This document shows, piece after piece, positions 5,951 to 38,306 of a DNA stretch of 64,000 bases; within the stretch, counting starts at the first letter, position 1; each line of letters begins with the position of its first letter. The stretch covers positions 7,672 through 71,671 of the forward strand of contig CAWEPZ010000008.1 of the NCBI GenBank assembly GCA_963811105.1. Direction: 5' to 3'. This stretch comes from Candidatus Bathyarchaeota archaeon. GTDB taxonomy: Archaea > Thermoproteota > Bathyarchaeia > Bathyarchaeales > Bathycorpusculaceae. The notes below the pieces were generated by a model. The model was not told where the DNA came from, did not search any database, and saw only the letters and a list, made by a program, of their open reading frames with translations. Made by a program: the position numbers and the translations under genes.

Positions 5951-6007
5951 AATTAAGAAACCCTTAACCATGGCTCGTCTATATTAGATGAGCCATCACC
6001 CTTCTAT
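5951..6007 (+). repeat. Dispersed palindromic element, copy 1 (copy 2 at 39596-39653, opposite strand)
   Basis: aattaagaaacccttaaccATGGCTC-N13-GAGCCATcacccttctat; the flanks and palindrome arms differ from copy 2 at only 3 positions. Confidence 0.75.
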
Positions 6008-6105
6008 TATTGCTTTTTTGATTGGTTGACAGTAATAGAGTGCTTGACTTTGGCATAAGTCTTAAGTTGTTCAAAACCGTTGAGGCTTGAGGAATAAGAA
6101 AAGAA

Positions 6106-6411
6106 ATGGACTCTATTGCAATAGCTAATTTAGCTTTAGATTTAGCCAGCATAATTAATTTCACAGCCTTACTCCTGATGCTCAGGGCAGTTATCAAAAA
6201 CAGAAAAGTCCTTCGAGGCTACAGCATTATAGGCTCCTTCTTAACATTCGTGTCTATAGTTGGTTTTGAAGTAGCATACTATTTGCTTGGCAATATTGTT
6301 GGTTTTGCACTTGGATGGGCAACAGTTGCTTTTTGGTTCATAGCTTTTCTCTATAGCTTAAGGCAAAGATTGAAAGGTTCGGAAAAAGAGAAGGTAATGG
6401 TTGAGCCTTAA
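6106..6411 (+). CDS. Small 3-TM membrane protein (PQ-loop/SemiSWEET-like topology, tentative)
   Basis: 101 aa, three hydrophobic helices, basic loop after TM1. Confidence 0.6.
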   Translation: MDSIAIANLALDLASIINFTALLLMLRAVIKNRKVLRGYSIIGSFLTFVSIVGFEVAYYLLGNIVGFALGWATVAFWFIAFLYSLRQRLKGSEKEKVMVEP

Positions 6412-8105
6412 ATGGCTGGAAACTGGATTGTGAACTTAGCTCCTTTACCCTCTTGACTTTCAAAACTTATGGCCCCGCCGTGTGCCTCTATTACTCGTTT
6501 GCAAACAGCTAAGCCGAAGCCTTGCCCCCGTGGTTTTGTGGTGAACAGGGGGGTGAATATTTGTGGTTTAATTTTTTCGGGAATTCCCACTCCGTTATCC
6601 TCCACTGTAACAGATATTTGCCCTTGAGGATGGACCTTGGAAGTTAAGGTCAGTTTTCCACCATCAGGCATAGCTTGAACTGCGTTAGTTACGAGGTTGA
6701 TTAGAACTCGCTTCATGAGCAGTGAGTCAGTATTTATTTCCGGAAAATTATCTTCAATATACGTTTGTATTGCAACGTTAATTGGAATAGTTGCCGACGA
6801 TAAAACAGAGCCAACCAGTTCTTTTAGGTTAGTTAGTTTTTTATTTAGTTTGATAGGTTGCACAAACGCTTGCAAGTCGGAAACAATCTTGTCCATATAG
6901 ATTGCCTGCTCCTCTATTACATGGATGCTTTCTTGTAAATTGATTTTAGCTTCATTTTCAGGAAGCGAATTAATGTCAAAATTGGCTAAATATAATTCGC
7001 CCAGCATTGTTTGCAGTGGATTGCGAAGGTCATGTCCCACCATGCCTGCAGTTTGACCAATAGCTGCCAAACGTTCTGAATCTTTAAGCCGCTTTGTTCG
7101 TTCAGTGATAAGTTTCTCTAGAACTCCCGCATATTGTTCCAGTTTCTTTTGAAGCACCTTTTGATCTGAGATATCTCGGACTATTGACCATATTCCTACT
7201 GCTTTCCCTCTTTCATCAGTCAACCGCCATGTTCTAACTGAGGCTGGAAAAATTGAGCCGTCTTTTCTTTTGTATTCTCTCTCAAAAACAAATGAGTGCC
7301 CAGTTTGCAGTACTTTGTTGACTACCTCCTCCCGTTGATCATGCCATTTTTCAGGTAGTAGCTGCTGTACACTCATTTTTCTTAGTTCTTTTTTTGTGTA
7401 ACCAAGCATTTTTGCATAAGCTCGGTTGCAATCAATCATTCGACCCGTTATGTTTCGCGCCATGATTCCATCCTGAGTTGTCTCGTACAACCCGCGGTAA
7501 CGTTTTTCCGATAAGGCATGTTGCCTTTCTGCCTTTTTGCGTTCTGTTAAATCCATAAATGCTGAAATAACATAGCCTTTCTTGGGACTGTAAACATGAA
7601 CTTGATACCACTTATCCTGAACCTGAAAGTAAATCTCAGATTGCTCAGTTTTGCCCGACGTTGCTACTCTACTAAAAATGCCCAGATAGTTTACAAAAAT
7701 CTTTCTTATTTTAGGAGCGAATTTGGTAGCTTGCTTGAGAAGTATCTGTTCTCTCTTAACTCCAAATATGTCTTCAAATGATTGGTTTGCCTCAAGAACA
7801 ATAAAATCAATTGGATTACCTTTTTCATCATAGAGTATTTTGCTAAGGGCAATACCTCCATGTAGTAGATTAGAGAAAATATTTTGGAAATGCTTATTGT
7901 CTATTACGAAATCTTCAAGCAAATTGTCGTTTTGCAGCCTGTTTTCATCGCCATTTTGGTGATGAGAAGAGTTTTCTGAAGAACTTATCAAGGGAGATAT
8001 CTGTTTATCTGTCTTCGATTGAGCAAAATCGATAGACTCTTCTATCGTATTTACTCCCCTGCTCACTATTATGTTGAAGAGCATAAAAAATTTTCGGCAT
8101 ATCAC
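6408..8105 (-). CDS. PAS-domain sensor histidine kinase (true start may lie downstream)
   Basis: Two PAS/PAC domains; H-box GHDLRNPL; N-box NLVTNAVQA; G boxes DNGVGI and GQGFGL. Confidence 0.92.
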   Translation of the reverse strand: MICRKFFMLFNIIVSRGVNTIEESIDFAQSKTDKQISPLISSSENSSHHQNGDENRLQNDNLLEDFVIDNKHFQNIFSNLLHGGIALSKILYDEKGNPIDFIVLEANQSFEDIFGVKREQILLKQATKFAPKIRKIFVNYLGIFSRVATSGKTEQSEIYFQVQDKWYQVHVYSPKKGYVISAFMDLTERKKAERQHALSEKRYRGLYETTQDGIMARNITGRMIDCNRAYAKMLGYTKKELRKMSVQQLLPEKWHDQREEVVNKVLQTGHSFVFEREYKRKDGSIFPASVRTWRLTDERGKAVGIWSIVRDISDQKVLQKKLEQYAGVLEKLITERTKRLKDSERLAAIGQTAGMVGHDLRNPLQTMLGELYLANFDINSLPENEAKINLQESIHVIEEQAIYMDKIVSDLQAFVQPIKLNKKLTNLKELVGSVLSSATIPINVAIQTYIEDNFPEINTDSLLMKRVLINLVTNAVQAMPDGGKLTLTSKVHPQGQISVTVEDNGVGIPEKIKPQIFTPLFTTKPRGQGFGLAVCKRVIEAHGGAISFESQEGKGAKFTIQFPAI

Positions 8106-31778: not shown

Positions 31779-32848
31779 TGCTGCACTTTGAGGACTTGTT
31801 CGTAGTAGCGTGGACAGTAGGTTAAGGTAATCTGGTAGCATGTTTCTCTTGGTGTTGTGACTTCTTCAAGGTTGCCTTCAACAATTATGACTTCGTCTTT
31901 TTGGGCTTGCTGGCGGAACTCTTCCATGAAAGAGATAACCCGCCGTGCCTGAAGTCCAACTGGGTCACCGCTTAAAACTTCCAAGGCTTTGATGCCGTAA
32001 ATTGATGGAATAAAGGGTGCTTCACCGTCCGACGTGACTTTGGCTTTTAGTTTTATCCAGCCTTTAGATGTAATTTTCGTTTTTGGGTCGTATTCAGATT
32101 TAATTTCGCCCCAAGCCTTCACCGGTTCAAACTCAGCTTTGATAGTTCTGCCGCTGGCTTTATCATCATATAACCCGTAGATTTGTTTTCTTCGCTGATG
32201 CCAAACAAAGTCTTCAGTAGTGAAGTTTTTAAACCGCCAATCCTTACCCGCCATGGCTTTATCTGATTCAAACTCGTTAGTCAAACACGAACGCTTATCA
32301 GCATACAAGGCTTCAAGCGCTTTTCGCATTTTGCAATTTTCATTTTTGCCATAAACCACAAGATCGATATCTGAGAATTTTGGGTGATGAAAACCATGCA
32401 ACATGGAGCCGAAAACTCCGAAGTTTGAAGTTTTTAACCCTGATTTTTTGGTTACTTTATCAAGCACTTTTTGCATTGCTAAGATGAGTTCATCTTTTGA
32501 TTCAGTTCTAATTATTTCTTGCAATCTTTCTTCTGGTTTTCTTGTTTGCGCGATTTCAGCTTCATTTATGCCAATAACTTTTCGGCGCAGCATGTCGTGA
32601 TAAACGGTGTATTTTTGGAAAGAGTTGGCAATTAGTTTCCATCCTTCATCGTTATAGAATTTGTAGAAGATTTTGTTTCTGCCTGTTCTTTGCGCTCGAG
32701 CGTCATTTGAGGTGAAAATGTTTGAAGAGGCATATTCAGCATCACAAATGTATGCTTGTGGCGGGTGAGAGTATCCAAAGACGCGGAAAATCAAGCCTTC
32801 ACTCGTCTCTATACCGTCTCGGTCACGCAGTTTTATGCTATTGGCCAT
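31775..32848 (-). CDS. Nucleotidyltransferase, paralogue B
   Basis: GVFGSMLHGFHHPKFSDID; same architecture as paralogue A. Confidence 0.85.
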   Translation of the reverse strand: MANSIKLRDRDGIETSEGLIFRVFGYSHPPQAYICDAEYASSNIFTSNDARAQRTGRNKIFYKFYNDEGWKLIANSFQKYTVYHDMLRRKVIGINEAEIAQTRKPEERLQEIIRTESKDELILAMQKVLDKVTKKSGLKTSNFGVFGSMLHGFHHPKFSDIDLVVYGKNENCKMRKALEALYADKRSCLTNEFESDKAMAGKDWRFKNFTTEDFVWHQRRKQIYGLYDDKASGRTIKAEFEPVKAWGEIKSEYDPKTKITSKGWIKLKAKVTSDGEAPFIPSIYGIKALEVLSGDPVGLQARRVISFMEEFRQQAQKDEVIIVEGNLEEVTTPRETCYQITLTYCPRYYEQVLKVQH

Positions 32849-33870
32849 ATGTATTCTTCCTCTGATGTTGCTGTTCCAACAACCACTTGATAATAAACTT
32901 CATCTGAAGTTGTTGATTCCACTCGTTCCAGTTTGCCCGCGACTTTAATCTCGCTTCCTTTGCGGGCTATGTTTCTGTAGCAGCCTATATTTGAAACAAC
33001 CTGAACTGGAATTTTGTCTAAATCAAGCTCTGACTGCTCATCTTGCGGTTTGTAGCCTGAAATCTTGTATATAGCTGGACGATACATAGTTTCAGTATCA
33101 TCGCAAACAGTTGCTTGGAATCGCACCGGGTCAAGCGGAATATAGCGGTAGGCTCCATATTTCTCCTTGACTTGTTCAGTTTTTTTGGTAGCGTTATACA
33201 TGAAGATTTTGCCCAGGTATTTTCCCTGGAATTTTCTTGCAGCTTCCAACCGGTTGCCGATAATGTAACTTAATTTTGCAGTAGTTAACAAGCCTGGCTA
33301 TAGCCTCTTCCACTAAACGGAAGTTTTCTGTGCCGTAAATAACGAAATCTATGTCTGATTCTGGTGCATGCATGTTCAAGGCGATGGAACCGTGGACTCC
33401 AAAATCTCTTAAATAGTATGTCCTGATTCCTTTGATATTAAATGAATTAGGCTCAGAGCCATTTGTTGGAGTTTGTCTTTTTTTGGCAGGTTTTGCAGCC
33501 AGACCAAGCGGTCTTTGGGAACAAAAACCTGCTGGATTAATTCGAGGGGTGCAGTGATTAATTCTTTGTTTCGGTAGGGGCAGAAGTAAAGGTAATCGGG
33601 AAAGTTTTTGCGGAAAGCTTCAATAAAAGTCTGGTAGTTTTTTGCAGTGTAGAGTTTTTCTGCTCTGAAAAGCTGGTTATCGCCAAACGTCCAGGTTCTC
33701 TCCAACATTTCAACGTCAAAAAGCTCCTTGTATTTGGCTGGGATATATTTGAGGAATGCGAAAACGCGGTCGTCTGGATGCTCGTACCCAAAAGTGTTGA
33801 GTATAAAGCCATCTTTGGTTACGAAGGTGTCTCCATCCATTGGAACCCAGATATCTTCAGTTATATTCAT
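32833..33870 (-). CDS. Nucleotidyltransferase, paralogue C; two indels (about 33420 and 33285)
   Basis: Three consecutive ORF pieces join into one protein with [19 protein letters not shown] and C-terminal [18 protein letters not shown]. Confidence 0.8.
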
Positions 33871-33939: not shown

Positions 33940-35284
33940 TTAATAATATTTTTTTGCCATTTTCTTTGCTTCAATAGCTTCTGGTGAATTGTCGTCCAAT
34001 GTGTCTGGGGTCTTTTGCTGTTCTTCTAGATTTTCTTTGGAGGTGTTTATTTTGTTTTTCGCGTTCTCTTTCTTTGTTTTCTTAAGTGCATTGGCAATAT
34101 ATTTGTTTAATTCAATATTTTTTATTATTTTATCGGATAGGGTTTCGGGTGCGTAAGCTAACGGCAGAATTGCTATAAACAAGAAGATAGCTGCAAAGGA
34201 AAAAACCGATTTTTCGCCTCCCATGACTGCAGCTATGTCTGTGCCAACAATAATACGCGTAATGTTTGAGAGAAGGTATGGCAATATGCCTAGGACATAA
34301 TATTTTTCGCTGCTTTTTTCCTGTGCTATGTCTCCCCAAATTGTAAATATGAATAGCATGGAAAATACGCCCCAGGCAATACCATCCACGCATACGTAAA
34401 ACCAAGCGGTAAGGTAGCCGCCGAAAGTCAAGCTTGCATAGCCTAATCCTAATAGGGCAAATGCTATCAAAGCTAAGCGTTTTCGACCACTCTTGTCAGC
34501 TAGAACTCCACAAACTATAGCAGATACTCCTGCCAAAATATTTTCGATAAGTATAAAATTTTGACCAAAAAATACAGGGAATTGGTTACTACCAAAGTAA
34601 TTAGAGTTCATTTTTTGTGTTAAGTCGTTGATAAGAGAGAACATGAACCATGGCACAATGTACAGCAGAAAAGTCTTATTTGAAATAATTGAACGGTAAG
34701 ATACGCGGTCTTTTGGGGCCAATTCTTTTTCAGGAAGCTTCAAACGTGTGAGTAAAATTAATCCTATAATCAGCCAAATTGATAAAGTGCTGGCTGTAAT
34801 TAGAGTTTGAGCGGTTCCTACTGATGGACAGAATGAAGAAGCCTAAGGCCATTAAAAGAATTATTATACCGCTAAACTTAGCGCGATTTTGTGGCTCGGT
34901 GTTTGCGGTATAGTATCCTATGCACACGGGCATTCCAAGCCCGAAATAGACACCTAAAACACTTGCAAGTATCAAGAGTATTGTGAAGCCTGCCAAATTG
35001 ATAAATGCAAATAATAATGAAAGCAAAACACCTGCAAGCACCCAATACTTAAGGAAAACTAGGCGTTGCTTGAATCTGCCAAATGATGTTGAGATTACTG
35101 CTGATAAAACCAAAGCGAAGAAATTAACGGCAACTACGGACAGTAGATCTTCTGGACGGGCGGCATCTTTTAGAAAAGTATATGTGGTAAGATACCACAC
35201 AAAGACGTTCGCTACTAAAAAAGTACTGACTAACGTGTTCTTTGATGTTGATTGAAGCTTCTTAATGATCCCGTGGTTTAGCAT
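33940..35284 (-). CDS. MFS transporter; indel near 34826
   Basis: Two ORFs join into about 12 TM helices; motif A GVLADKSGRKRL in the second half. Confidence 0.82.
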
Positions 35285-35416
35285 CTCTATCGTATTGAGC
35301 TACCTATTCTTAGTTAACCATTAAGGCTTAATAAACTATAAACAGTCCTTTGAATCCACATTTATAATCCACAACAAAACATTTCACTAACCAAAAAATA
35401 TAAACACATTTCAAGG

Positions 35417-36437
35417 TCACATTTCAGCACTTAAAGCCTCAAGCAAAATCGTCAACTCTTTCGCTCTCTTACTGTCTTTGAGCAGCAAATTGCTTGCCAA
35501 TTCATTTTCACCAAGTTTCCGTAATTCAGCTTTTAGTTTTTGAACTTCAATGGAGTTTAATGTAGTTTTAGCGATGAATTTTAGATTTTTAGATGAAATC
35601 CTGTTTTCTTTGACAAATGGGAGAAATTGTTCTTTTATTTTCGGGTTTTGTAGTGCATAAAGCATGGGGTATGGGGGTAGTTCATTTTTGATTCTGTGTG
35701 CAAGTTCAGAGGGGGTCACAAGGTCAACAAATTCTTCCTTCAACGTTGACAATATCCCAATTAATCGACCATAATTAGTCAAATCCTCAATCATCTTCTC
35801 GTCTGCACCAGCAAAAACCCCGCCAATTCTGCAGTGAAGCCCAGCTATAACCCCTTTTAGCCTAATTACCTTAAAATATTCCTCGGGTGTTACATCTGCT
35901 TTCTTCCATAATTCTACTTCCACAGATTCTGCCTTGATTATTTCAGTCATTGATTTTAGAACAAAAGCTGTGACTACCTTTTTCTGATCATTTGTTAAGG
36001 ATTCGCAGTTTTGTAGTGCTACAGTGCCTTCGAAGTAGTAAGGTGTCGCCTGCGAGAAGAGCAACATCTCTACCATATTTACCGAAAATGGTTTTTGTTT
36101 CGAATTTCTCAATCGAATTGTCAATGATGTCATCGTGGATGTCTCCTGCTGCGGTCATCAGCATCATGGCAGTGGCCAAAGGTTTTGTTTTTTCAGGGTT
36201 TCCTCCTCCGGCTTTGCAGGAGAGATACAAAAGGGCTGGGAAAATCGGCAATACATTTGGCAAAATTTCTGTAGCATAATAATTTAGTGCATTGGAGATT
36301 GTTCCCTTGGCTTCTTGACCCTCACGAATCTTTTTGGAAGCTGCATCTAACACAGATTTGCCTCTGTGGTTAATAATTTCCAGAGCTTTTTCTGTTAGCG
36401 AGTAGGGTTTCATATCTTTACCGTGTCGGGTTTGCAT
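35417..36437 (-). CDS. Polyprenyl-synthase-fold prenyltransferase (ComQ-like); indel near 36035
   Basis: FARM DIHDDIID intact, ALLAGD.L conserved; GKRxRP, post-FARM RRG and SARM DDxxD absent (SARM reads LKEEFVD); alternative start at 36413. Confidence 0.82.
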
Positions 36438-36501
36438 TTCTAATTAATAATTGATTTTTCAAAAAAGTAAATTGAAATTTGTGTATCGTTTTTGTCGACA
36501 T

Positions 36502-36558
36502 TTACCAGCCGCCCCAATTCGCTGGTGTGGCTCTTGTTATAGCTTTTTTCTGGTTCAT
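36502..36558 (-). CDS. 18-aa peptide MNQKKAITRATPANWGGW (candidate prenylated-peptide precursor)
   Basis: ATG at 36558, TAA at 36502-36504; GAGGTGA SD 5 nt upstream; first gene before the prenyltransferase. Confidence 0.65.
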   Translation of the reverse strand: MNQKKAITRATPANWGGW

Positions 36559-36563
36559 TAATT

Positions 36564-36570
36564 TCACCTC
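36564..36570 (-). promoter_or_regulatory. Shine-Dalgarno sequence GAGGTGA of the peptide gene
   Basis: Canonical archaeal SD, 5-nt spacer to ATG 36558. Confidence 0.7.
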
Positions 36571-36871: not shown

Positions 36872-37046
36872 GTTCCGCGTGACAAACCCGAGGTATCAAC
36901 CACTCTTCACAACAAAGGCAAAAGGATAAGGTTTCGGCTTTGCCGTATATAAACTATTAATAGAAGCACAGAATAGCACAATAACTTTTGAAAGCGAAGA
37001 AAACAATGGAACCAAATTCACTATAACTCTGCCAATCGCAAAATAA
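36872..37046 (+). pseudogene. Histidine kinase HATPase_c C-terminal remnant
   Basis: Frame from 36897: QPLFTTKAKG*GFGFAVYKLLIEAQNSTITFESEENNGTKFTITLPIAK*; matches the C-terminus of the kinase at 6408-8105; internal TAA at 36927. Confidence 0.8.
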
Positions 37047-37199: not shown

Positions 37200-38306
37200 A
37201 TGGTTGTTACACCTTGGGAAGTAAAAGGCAAAGTAGACTACGAACGCTTAATCCGTGAATTCGGCACCCAACCCTTAACTCCCCAACTGCTTGAAAGAGT
37301 AGAAAAACATACTGACAAACTCCACCTACAACTTGAAAGACGCATTTTCTTCAGCCACCGAGACCTCGACACCGTCCTAGACCTCTACGACAAAGGCATA
37401 AAATTCGTCCTCTACACAGGCAGAGGACCATCAGGGCCAGTTCACATCGGACACCTCGTCCCATGGATATTCACACTTCACATCCAACAAAAATTCAACA
37501 CAAGACTCTATTTTCAAATAACCGATGATGAAAAATACCTCATAAGCGATGACGCAGACCTCAAAAAAACAAGCAAATACTCCTACGAAAACGCTTTAGA
37601 CCTAATAGCGCTCGGATTCAAGCCAGAGAACACATTCATCATCTACGACACCAAAGACATCGACTTACTATACGAAATCACGTTGGAAGTAGCTAAGCGC
37701 ATAACTTACAGCACAGCACGAAGCAGCTTTGGTTTCCAAGACAGCACCAACATAGGTTGGGTCTTCTGGCCAGCAATCCAAGCCGCACCATGCTTCATTC
37801 ACAAAAAACTCACAGGCGAAAACGTCCCAGCGCTCATCCCAGCAGCCATCGACCAAGACCCCTATTGGCGAGTAACCCGCGACATAGCTCAAAAACTCGG
37901 CTACTATAAACCAGCACAAATCCACTGCCGCTTCCTACCTGGTTTAGGAGCAGGCGGAAAAATGAGTGCATCAATGCCTGAAACCAGCATATTCACTGTT
38001 GACCCTCCAGATGTGGTTAAAAAGAAGATTTGGAACGCATTCACAGGCGGCAAAGGCACAGCAGCTGAGCAACGAAAAACAGGCGCAGACCCAACAGTCT
38101 GCAGCATCTTCCAATACTATTTCTTCCTCGTTGAAGAAGAAAGCAGCAAATTAGCTGAACGCGAACGCAGGTGCCGAGGAGGCGAAATTCTATGCGGCGA
38201 ATGCAAAAAAGATCTAGCAGAAAAACTCAACAAATTTCTGCAAGGGCATCAGGAACGTCGCGAAAAAGCCAAAGATGTAATCGAACAATACCATATAAAA
38301 CGTTAA
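37200..38306 (+). CDS. trpS: Tryptophan--tRNA ligase
   Basis: YTGRGPSGPVHIGH (HIGH), AIDQDPYWR, KMSAS. Confidence 0.97.
   Translation: MVVTPWEVKGKVDYERLIREFGTQPLTPQLLERVEKHTDKLHLQLERRIFFSHRDLDTVLDLYDKGIKFVLYTGRGPSGPVHIGHLVPWIFTLHIQQKFNTRLYFQITDDEKYLISDDADLKKTSKYSYENALDLIALGFKPENTFIIYDTKDIDLLYEITLEVAKRITYSTARSSFGFQDSTNIGWVFWPAIQAAPCFIHKKLTGENVPALIPAAIDQDPYWRVTRDIAQKLGYYKPAQIHCRFLPGLGAGGKMSASMPETSIFTVDPPDVVKKKIWNAFTGGKGTAAEQRKTGADPTVCSIFQYYFFLVEEESSKLAERERRCRGGEILCGECKKDLAEKLNKFLQGHQERREKAKDVIEQYHIKR

Follow-up and report, generated by a model that had tools for sequence, protein, structure and literature searches.

In this study we describe a small gene cluster in a stretch of 64,000 nucleotides from a Bathyarchaeota archaeon (assembly GCA_963811105.1, contig CAWEPZ010000008.1; the whole stretch is called the window hereafter), in which a gene of only 18 codons precedes a homologue of isoprenyl diphosphate synthases (IPPS) and a transporter gene of the major facilitator superfamily (MFS). 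We read this locus as a decayed representative of a cluster family that is common across Bathyarchaeia and whose small clusters would make prenylated peptides: with a probability of about 0.6, in our estimate, the encoded peptides are precursors that become prenylated on a terminal Trp and are then exported. The peptide genes are tightly and specifically linked to the enzyme and MFS genes, and their C-terminal motif co-varies with the locus. The source genome, a metagenome bin, amounts to 3.49 Mb on 15 contigs.

The upstream peptide gene and its conservation

An earlier, sequence-only reading of the window had pointed out an 18-codon open reading frame (ORF; 36558-36502) with a perfect GAGGTGA Shine-Dalgarno (SD) site, followed by a polyprenyl synthase homologue and an MFS gene, and this arrangement was borne out by direct reading and by matches to PF00348 and PF07690. 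Short ORFs (10-30 amino acids, aa) preceded by GGTGA number 781 in the genome. Two of them end in GW plus 0-3 residues, one being the window ORF, which is the sole ORF genome-wide that combines a GGTGA site with the right length and a peptide-like, GW-ended sequence. The peptide gene is kept in more than 30 orthologous loci, and every close orthologue of the enzyme has one. Orthologous enzymes from congeneric genomes (41-52% identity to that of the window) are intact proteins of 331-335 aa, and all of them have a short SD-preceded ORF with a C-terminal Trp 66-217 nt upstream, introduced by the same GAGGTGA or by GGAGGTGA; the idea of a conserved Trp-containing ORF thus held in the orthologous loci, whose codons show conservation at the amino-acid level. 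Within the genus, 24 distinct upstream peptide genes encode a basic N-terminus (MN.K[KR].I[KR]AK...), a variable middle and an invariant G-W. The Gly codons before the Trp vary (GGC 8, GGA 8, GGT 7, GGG 1), TGG is used for Trp in 24/24, and the ratio of nonsynonymous to synonymous substitution rates (dN/dS) is ∼0.42. The upstream peptide genes are genuine and under selection at the amino-acid level, and such codon-level selection argues for their translation. The public annotation of an orthologous locus has no gene call at the peptide position.

The linkage was also found in the reverse direction. Metagenomes were scanned with a DNA pattern of SD plus peptide, the enzyme not being used in the query, and 17 matches were obtained: in 9 of them a family enzyme lies directly downstream (one copy frameshifted), mostly with a protease gene upstream, and the other 8 were out of frame or in unrelated context, which is about the estimated chance level. 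One metagenome match (L073) that looked like the peptide was put down to chance; it overlaps with a longer ORF, and the archaeon is an unrelated one. In five genomes whose enzymes are all adjacent to a leucyl-tRNA-ligase-like (LeuRS) gene, a search for an upstream-type peptide encoded in trans gave sparse matches, none of them similar to the peptide. Those loci have a convergent peptide type instead.

Convergent peptide genes and matched C-termini

Two components of the family had been absent from the sequence-only reading: a conserved secreted protease and, family-wide, a second peptide gene. The latter is a tiny ORF tail-to-tail with the enzyme, whose stop codon falls between about -27 and +51 nt relative to that of the enzyme, and it is contained in the enzyme-MFS gap of most family loci (for example LKKQKIARLWGTW, MKAQKIIRGIGW, MEKRRAIRKKPKVLAW and MVKKKVKPKPVRFRFWWP). 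By one fixed criterion for family and control loci, a basic W-ended convergent ORF is present in 31/57 family loci vs 0/1411 long control ORFs of the window genome, and any basic short convergent ORF in 39/57 vs 60/1411. Convergent peptide ORFs extend to other genera and to a further family of the order. Within one clade their dN/dS is 0.285, and the invariant Arg is coded by CGA, AGA, CGC, CGT and CGG. Nearly every enzyme-MFS pair has at least one tiny ORF, upstream or convergent. In the window and its closest (WGGW) subclade the convergent gene is absent, as judged by six-frame reading of 35270-35480 and of the orthologous gaps. At two loci, L009 (∼1360-1410 of the locus; ...KLIRSAGWPGI) and L038 (1522-1600; ...KKPIRPVRMYWW), the convergent ORF appears to have a single-base disruption in A-runs or no standard start codon, which could be due to assembly indels or to real decay.

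Where both peptides are present (14 loci), their last 4-5 residues are the same or nearly so within a locus and different between loci: QAGWI/QAGWI, SSGWV/SSGWV, TAGWL/TAGWL, LTGWY/LTGWY and TFGGW/TFGGW, and also AGWY. Three further matched pairs come from another genus. The N-terminal parts of the two peptides remain type-specific. At 28 of the 51 identical non-Trp residues in the 14 loci different synonymous codons are used, for instance TCG vs AGT for Ser, so that the matching argues for selection on a locus-specific C-terminal core rather than for recent gene conversion. Since the matching stretch starts right after the invariant Arg of the convergent type, the core would comprise ∼5 residues (NWGGW in the window); the boundary between leader and core is accordingly placed, as a prediction, from the region that matches between both types. 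The key residue named earlier, Trp15, did not hold: it is Phe in the sister subclade and other residues elsewhere, and the invariant residue is the terminal Trp18 after Gly. In a tree of 59 enzymes the C-terminal class of the peptide coincides with the enzyme clade.

Nearly all loci of the family have an MFS homologue downstream of the enzyme, and a secreted trypsin-fold protease (PF00089) often precedes the upstream-type peptide. The protease gene is single-copy in 32 of the 120 genomes of the genus and adjoins a family enzyme in 31 of these 32; in the one other genome (G033) the contig stops at this gene. By gene content the loci show the generic layout of a cluster for peptides that are made by ribosomes and modified after translation (RiPPs), with one or more peptides, the IPPS-like enzyme, the MFS gene and, in the 32/120 genomes, the PF00089 protease. 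One enzyme clade has the enzyme on one strand, and the protease, a 20-aa peptide (...VGMWW) and the MFS gene on the other. In three different gene orders the peptide is found together with the enzyme and MFS genes, and the grouping of precursor, modifying enzyme and exporter suggested by the sequence-only reading was upheld in this respect. That the set is kept despite rearrangement points to a functional unit and counts against a regulatory role of the peptide ORF tied to the enzyme.

Such a role would be that of a cis-regulatory leader peptide (upstream ORF), for example a Trp-sensing one, which controls the enzyme and gives no peptide product. It would fit the position of the ORF just upstream of the enzyme on the same strand, the Trp codons at its end, and the nearby gene for tryptophan--tRNA ligase (Table 1). 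However, the whole peptide is conserved at the level of amino acids with synonymous changes, and both peptides of a locus have a common, locus-specific C-terminus. In the commonest family arrangement the peptide gene is convergent with the enzyme, so there is no downstream gene to regulate, and in the clade just mentioned the peptide gene stands between those of the protease and the MFS protein, the enzyme being encoded on the opposite strand. A search of Rfam gave no match in the peptide region. Peptide and enzyme are also separated by T-runs, which follow the peptide in the orthologous spacers (66-217 nt), and by a promoter-like element: a recurrent ACCTAAAA(N2-4)ACAAATA-like sequence lies ∼25-30 nt ahead of the enzyme ATG, with or without an upstream peptide (e.g. 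L005, L047, L061, L038:470-500). It looks like a promoter of the BRE/TATA type (BRE, transcription factor B recognition element) for leaderless or short-leader mRNAs, and peptide and enzyme would then be separate transcription units. Finally, the adjacency to tryptophan--tRNA ligase is unique to the window: other loci adjoin a protease or LeuRS gene, and in many the neighbour is a divergent leucyl-tRNA-ligase-like gene, recognised by its N-terminal motif only. The recurrent adjacency to aminoacyl-tRNA synthetases is probably a matter of synteny. We therefore regard a purely regulatory leader peptide as very improbable.

The enzyme and the proposed chemistry

The AlphaFold model of the enzyme (pLDDT, the predicted local distance difference test, of 93) has the all-alpha fold of trans-IPPS, and the top Foldseek matches are IPPS enzymes, with template modelling scores of ∼0.8 to the geranylgeranyl diphosphate (GGPP) synthase 1wy0 and 0.69 to the indole prenyltransferase Ord1 (PDB 9V4G-J). 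Fold and first Asp-rich motif are those of archaeal GGPP synthases and Ord1: D91, H93, D94, D95 and D98 are invariant or nearly so in 54 sequences (DIHDDIID in the window). The second motif is an acidic variant, (D/E)(E/D)FxD, EExxD or DExxD, with E-F-x-D invariant (E227 and D230; EEFVD in the window). Unlike in GGPP synthases, the basic residues that bind isopentenyl diphosphate (IPP) are replaced. In the HMMER alignment with 1wy0, GGKRxRP has become LPIFPA and RRG has become K-x-x-K-K; across the alignments with 1wy0 and others, lPifP stands for KRVRP, K-f-s-k for RRG and s-t for FQ. Binding of IPP is therefore unlikely. The Gln/Asp network that binds indole in Ord1 is absent as well. The claim that the enzyme lacks motifs for chain elongation was consequently right for the IPP-binding residues and wrong for the acidic motifs, the first being intact and the second still acidic. 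Small residues ahead of the first motif suggest a prenyl chain length of C20 or longer.

Enzyme and MFS protein might instead serve a lipid or isoprenoid function by themselves, for instance in the synthesis or export of a special prenyl compound, with the tiny ORFs as independent small proteins (transporter regulators, for example) that merely share the synteny. Bacteria do have small proteins with a regulatory effect on transporters, and the pairing of enzyme and MFS gene is universal and older than the addition of the upstream peptide and protease. The peptides, however, are hydrophilic, basic and 10-21 aa long, which sets them apart from regulator peptides embedded in membranes. Their C-termini follow the enzyme clade and agree between the two genes of a locus despite the different orientation of these genes, and with its IPP-binding residues lost the enzyme needs another acceptor. 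We consider a separate lipid function improbable, although less so than a purely regulatory ORF. As an observation on the transporters themselves, family MFS proteins end in a conserved hydrophilic ...(A/M)(E/K)KYY after a long Lys/Glu-rich C-terminal extension (in the window at 33940-33975, minus strand), which is unusual for MFS transporters.

Prenylation of a peptide Trp by enzymes of the IPPS fold has been described for ComQ, StheQ and PalQ (PMC10853753; PMC13290415; bioRxiv 10.64898/2026.08.29.745113). The residue prenylated by PalQ is a strictly C-terminal Trp, preferably in a GW or GGW end (PMC10853753, PMC13290415), and for ComQ and StheQ the modified Trp stands 2-4 residues before the end (bioRxiv 10.64898/2026.08.29.745113). 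The PalQ/PalX pair of Paenibacillus alvei resembles the Bathyarchaeia loci in that an enzyme of the IPPS superfamily lies beside a precursor with a conserved C-terminal Trp, and the Gly before Trp that PalQ prefers is the invariant motif of the Bathyarchaeia peptides (PMC10853753, PMC13290415). Unlike PalX, whose leader is long and of the NHLP type and which has a kinase gene beside it, the Bathyarchaeia precursors are 10-21 aa long with a basic leader and no kinase. Their loci have an MFS gene and often a secreted protease, the host is an archaeon, many peptides carry 1-2 residues after the Trp, and the enzyme keeps an acidic second motif without the conserved Gln. In ComQ/ComX (ComQXPA of Bacillus) and StheQ/StheX (Sphaerobacter) a non-elongating IPPS-fold enzyme prenylates a Trp near the C-terminus of an adjacently encoded small precursor, as is proposed for the Bathyarchaeia loci. 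In these systems, too, peptide and enzyme co-diversify between strains, and the mature peptides of 5-10 residues are similar in size to the core of ∼5 residues predicted here. They differ in precursors of 53-69 aa with an internal Trp (-2 to -4), in the linked ComP/ComA, and in a second motif that is a pseudo second aspartate-rich motif (pseudo-SARM, NDxxx) and binds no metal.

By layout the microcin C operon mccABC offers another comparison: it encodes the heptapeptide MccA, an enzyme that modifies its C-terminus and the MFS exporter MccC. Like the Bathyarchaeia loci it is a compact cluster of a very short ribosomal precursor, an enzyme acting on the C-terminal residue and an MFS efflux pump. 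Its modification, by contrast, is an adenylation by a ThiF/MoeB-like enzyme rather than by one of the IPPS fold, and the system is bacterial.

Several results weigh against Trp prenylation and have to be set against these likenesses. Judged by the criteria published for ComQ, StheQ and PalQ (bioRxiv 10.64898/2026.08.29.745113 and PMC13290415), the enzyme has neither the pseudo-SARM NDxxx nor the conserved Gln that precedes it, with Thr or Leu at the Gln position, and its acidic second motif resembles that of ordinary synthases. The best PDB profile match is the GGPP synthase 1wy0 (E 1.7e-29 vs 2e-19 for Ord1); Ord1 comes 5th in the sequence-profile search and 26th in the fold search, and canonical GGPP synthases are nearest in both. 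NCBIfam and Pfam gave generic or synthase models only, below their cut-offs, and neither fold nor sequence searches separated a prenyltransferase from a synthase. Several convergent peptides of deeper clades contain no Trp (ends PVRFSI, PVRVLP, PVRFD and PMRVYSI), so Trp cannot be the universal acceptor, and PalQ would not tolerate the 1-2 residues that follow the Trp in many peptides. Shared descent partly explains the co-variation among congeneric genomes. Lastly, the enzyme and MFS gene of the window itself are broken. By sequence the enzyme is not a ComQ-family member: it is not detectably closer to ComQ-type enzymes than to archaeal GGPP synthases, and the comparison with Ord1 together with the published features of ComQ, StheQ and PalQ sets it, on sequence grounds, outside the ComQ/PalQ families. 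We therefore treat it as a separate offshoot of the IPPS which may act in the manner of ComQ or PalQ.

Some of these points would suit a different chemistry, in which the peptides are true substrates or scaffolds and something other than Trp prenylation takes place: modification of the near-invariant Arg or of Tyr/Phe, a terpene-cyclase-like reaction, or use of the C-terminus as a carrier of a small molecule that is cleaved later. The Trp-less family peptides still have P-(V/I/M)-R, followed by a tail that is aromatic or aliphatic, both acidic motifs are kept while the Gln/Asn network of ComQ, PalQ and Ord1 is missing, and a protease is co-encoded. On the other hand, the characterised IPPS-like peptide or indole prenyltransferases all act on Trp (PMC13290415). 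G-W is the only invariant part of the core in the clade of the window and its sister clades, and the GW/GGW ends match the preference of PalQ exactly. Hence we hold another chemistry to be unlikely, if the most plausible of the three alternatives weighed for the family as a whole.

For Trp prenylation the following course is proposed. A tiny ribosomal precursor would consist of a basic leader and a core of ∼5 residues ending in x-G-W, plus 0-2 residues. The enzyme would bind the precursor and ionise an allylic diphosphate by means of DxHDDxxD and (D/E)(E/D)FxD without binding IPP, and the prenyl group would move onto the indole of the terminal Trp. The adjacent MFS protein might then export the product, and the co-encoded secreted trypsin-fold protease, where present, might cut the leader off the upstream-type precursor. 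Upstream-type precursors would need cleavage after KP-(I/V/A), which would explain why the protease accompanies only that type. From the genes and their arrangement we infer prenyl transfer, its acceptor atom, export, leader cleavage and the role of the product, be it signal or antimicrobial.

The enzyme family is not confined to a few genomes. Its profile matches 116/401 genomes of the Bathyarchaeia class (∼29%) in 43/131 genera, with a concentration in the family to which the window belongs (82/103 genomes) and in two others. Public metagenomes hold >250 homologues of the enzyme; such annotation as these have calls them GGPP or heptaprenyl synthases. A guess about a single locus has thereby become a testable family, with dozens of enzyme-peptide pairs with matched C-termini.

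To our knowledge the IPPS-derived peptide prenyltransferases described so far (ComQ, PalQ, ChrPC, StheQ) are all bacterial, and we know of almost nothing on chemical communication or competition in the abundant and uncultured Bathyarchaeia. No report of an archaeal IPPS-derived peptide prenyltransferase was found in the literature searched, and prenylation and Bathyarchaeia are both absent from a 2025 survey of archaeal RiPPs. The simplest explanation of the peptide-enzyme family, and on balance a probable one, is that it represents the first equivalent in Archaea of the Trp-prenylated peptides known from bacteria, ComX and PalX among them. It would be a new enzyme lineage for peptide lipidation, possibly with long archaeal prenyl donors. 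The family also illustrates clearly how functional genes as short as 10-21 codons escape gene callers, and it gives a handle on cell-cell interactions in a major archaeal group of sediment and soil. As a tentative extension, which we think rather doubtful at present, the loci might form an unannotated, lineage-specific system of peptide signalling or antagonism across Bathyarchaeia, with locus-specific prenylated peptides of ∼5 residues, an independently evolved archaeal IPPS-derived enzyme and co-diversification resembling that of Bacillus pherotypes. The precursors of 10-21 aa would in that case be among the shortest known, and Archaea other than the halophiles would have their first ribosomal lipopeptide or pheromone system.

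The locus in the window and its neighbourhood

The features of the window are collected in Table 1. The upstream-type and the convergent peptide are called A and B there.

Table 1. Features of the peptide cluster and its surroundings (window coordinates)
Feature	Position	Strand	Remarks
Shine-Dalgarno site GAGGTGA	36564..36570	-	read directly; 5 nt ahead of peptide ATG
Upstream-type (A) precursor peptide gene, MNQKKAITRATPANWGGW	36502..36558	-	18 codons + TAA; ATG36558...TAA36502
Proposed split of MNQKKAITRATPANWGGW			putative leader MNQKKAITRATPA, putative core NWGGW; acceptor candidate, invariant Trp18
Peptide-enzyme spacer, 88 nt	36414..36501	-	T-run and A/T-rich promoter-like stretch
IPPS-like enzyme, N-terminal part (orthologue residues 1-128)	36030..36413	-	DIHDDIID; PF00348 E 1.1e-6
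IPPS-like enzyme, C-terminal part, other frame	35417..36031	-	KEEFVD, ELPPYP; PF00348 E 1.6e-8
Enzyme-MFS gap, 132 nt	35285..35416		no convergent (B) peptide gene in window
MFS gene, N-terminal part	34823..35284	-	PF07690 (MFS_1) E 3.5e-5; 52% identity to orthologous MFS residues 1-137 (tblastn)
MFS gene, C-terminal part, other frame	33940..34821	-	...KKYY tail; PF07690 E 2.9e-6; 62% identity to residues 138-394 (tblastn)
Histidine-kinase ATPase tail (HATPase_c)	36930-37043	+	E 2.3e-5, 25.2 bits, slightly below Pfam cut-off
Tryptophan--tRNA ligase (trpS), intact	37200-38306	+	NF008927, 512 bits; divergent from peptide cluster

The enzyme frame is broken by one extra base near 36029-36031. Against an intact orthologue, tblastn gave 59% identity over 36413-36030 for the N-terminal part, whose open frame formally begins at 36437, and 52% over 36031-35420 for the C-terminal part. 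The MFS gene is split by one frameshift at ∼34822. These findings bear on a further possibility, which concerns the window only: the cluster could be a dead relic in which enzyme and MFS gene are pseudogenes, the protease is lost and the intact peptide ORF makes nothing. In support of this, neither frameshift, one per gene, lies in a homopolymer, and no protease homologue or remnant was found in the window or elsewhere in its genome. A neighbouring nucleotidyltransferase gene is split too, and broken components are found in related loci, including two metagenome contigs of the Joint Genome Institute. Against it, the assembly is that of a metagenome bin, in which indel errors are possible; exact-product look-ups found no independent assembly on record that carries the two enzyme fragments. 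The peptide ORF and its SD site, moreover, are still perfect. With enzyme and MFS gene frameshifted and the protease absent, the copy in the window is probably non-functional, unless the frameshifts are assembly errors, and we lean towards a dead relic here.

The sequence-only reading had further placed a decayed histidine kinase beside the cluster and had set it next to ComP, the kinase that senses the Bacillus pheromone. The HATPase_c tail is real; its place is in the interval from the peptide gene to trpS, it is preceded by an in-frame stop at ∼36927, and an upstream HisKA part is missing. However, it is on the plus strand opposite the cluster, no kinase was found in the orthologous loci with 3.5-kb flanks, and it is unrelated to the cluster. 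Because neither the kinase relic nor the tryptophan--tRNA ligase gene is conserved with the cluster, the quorum-sensing part of the proposal is unsupported.

Two ordinary polyprenyl synthases are encoded on another contig of the genome. Next to the MFS gene of the window lies a third paralogous nucleotidyltransferase-like gene (32833-33870, minus strand), split over three frames (33409-33870, 33194-33379 and 32833-33291). With it, four frameshifts fall within ∼3.5 kb, and the flanking genes are intact. At the locus L038 a radical SAM/SPASM protein (5984-6940, plus strand; PF04055, PF13186) is encoded directly after the MFS gene of a WGGW-type cluster, and a second enzyme-MFS pair lies upstream.

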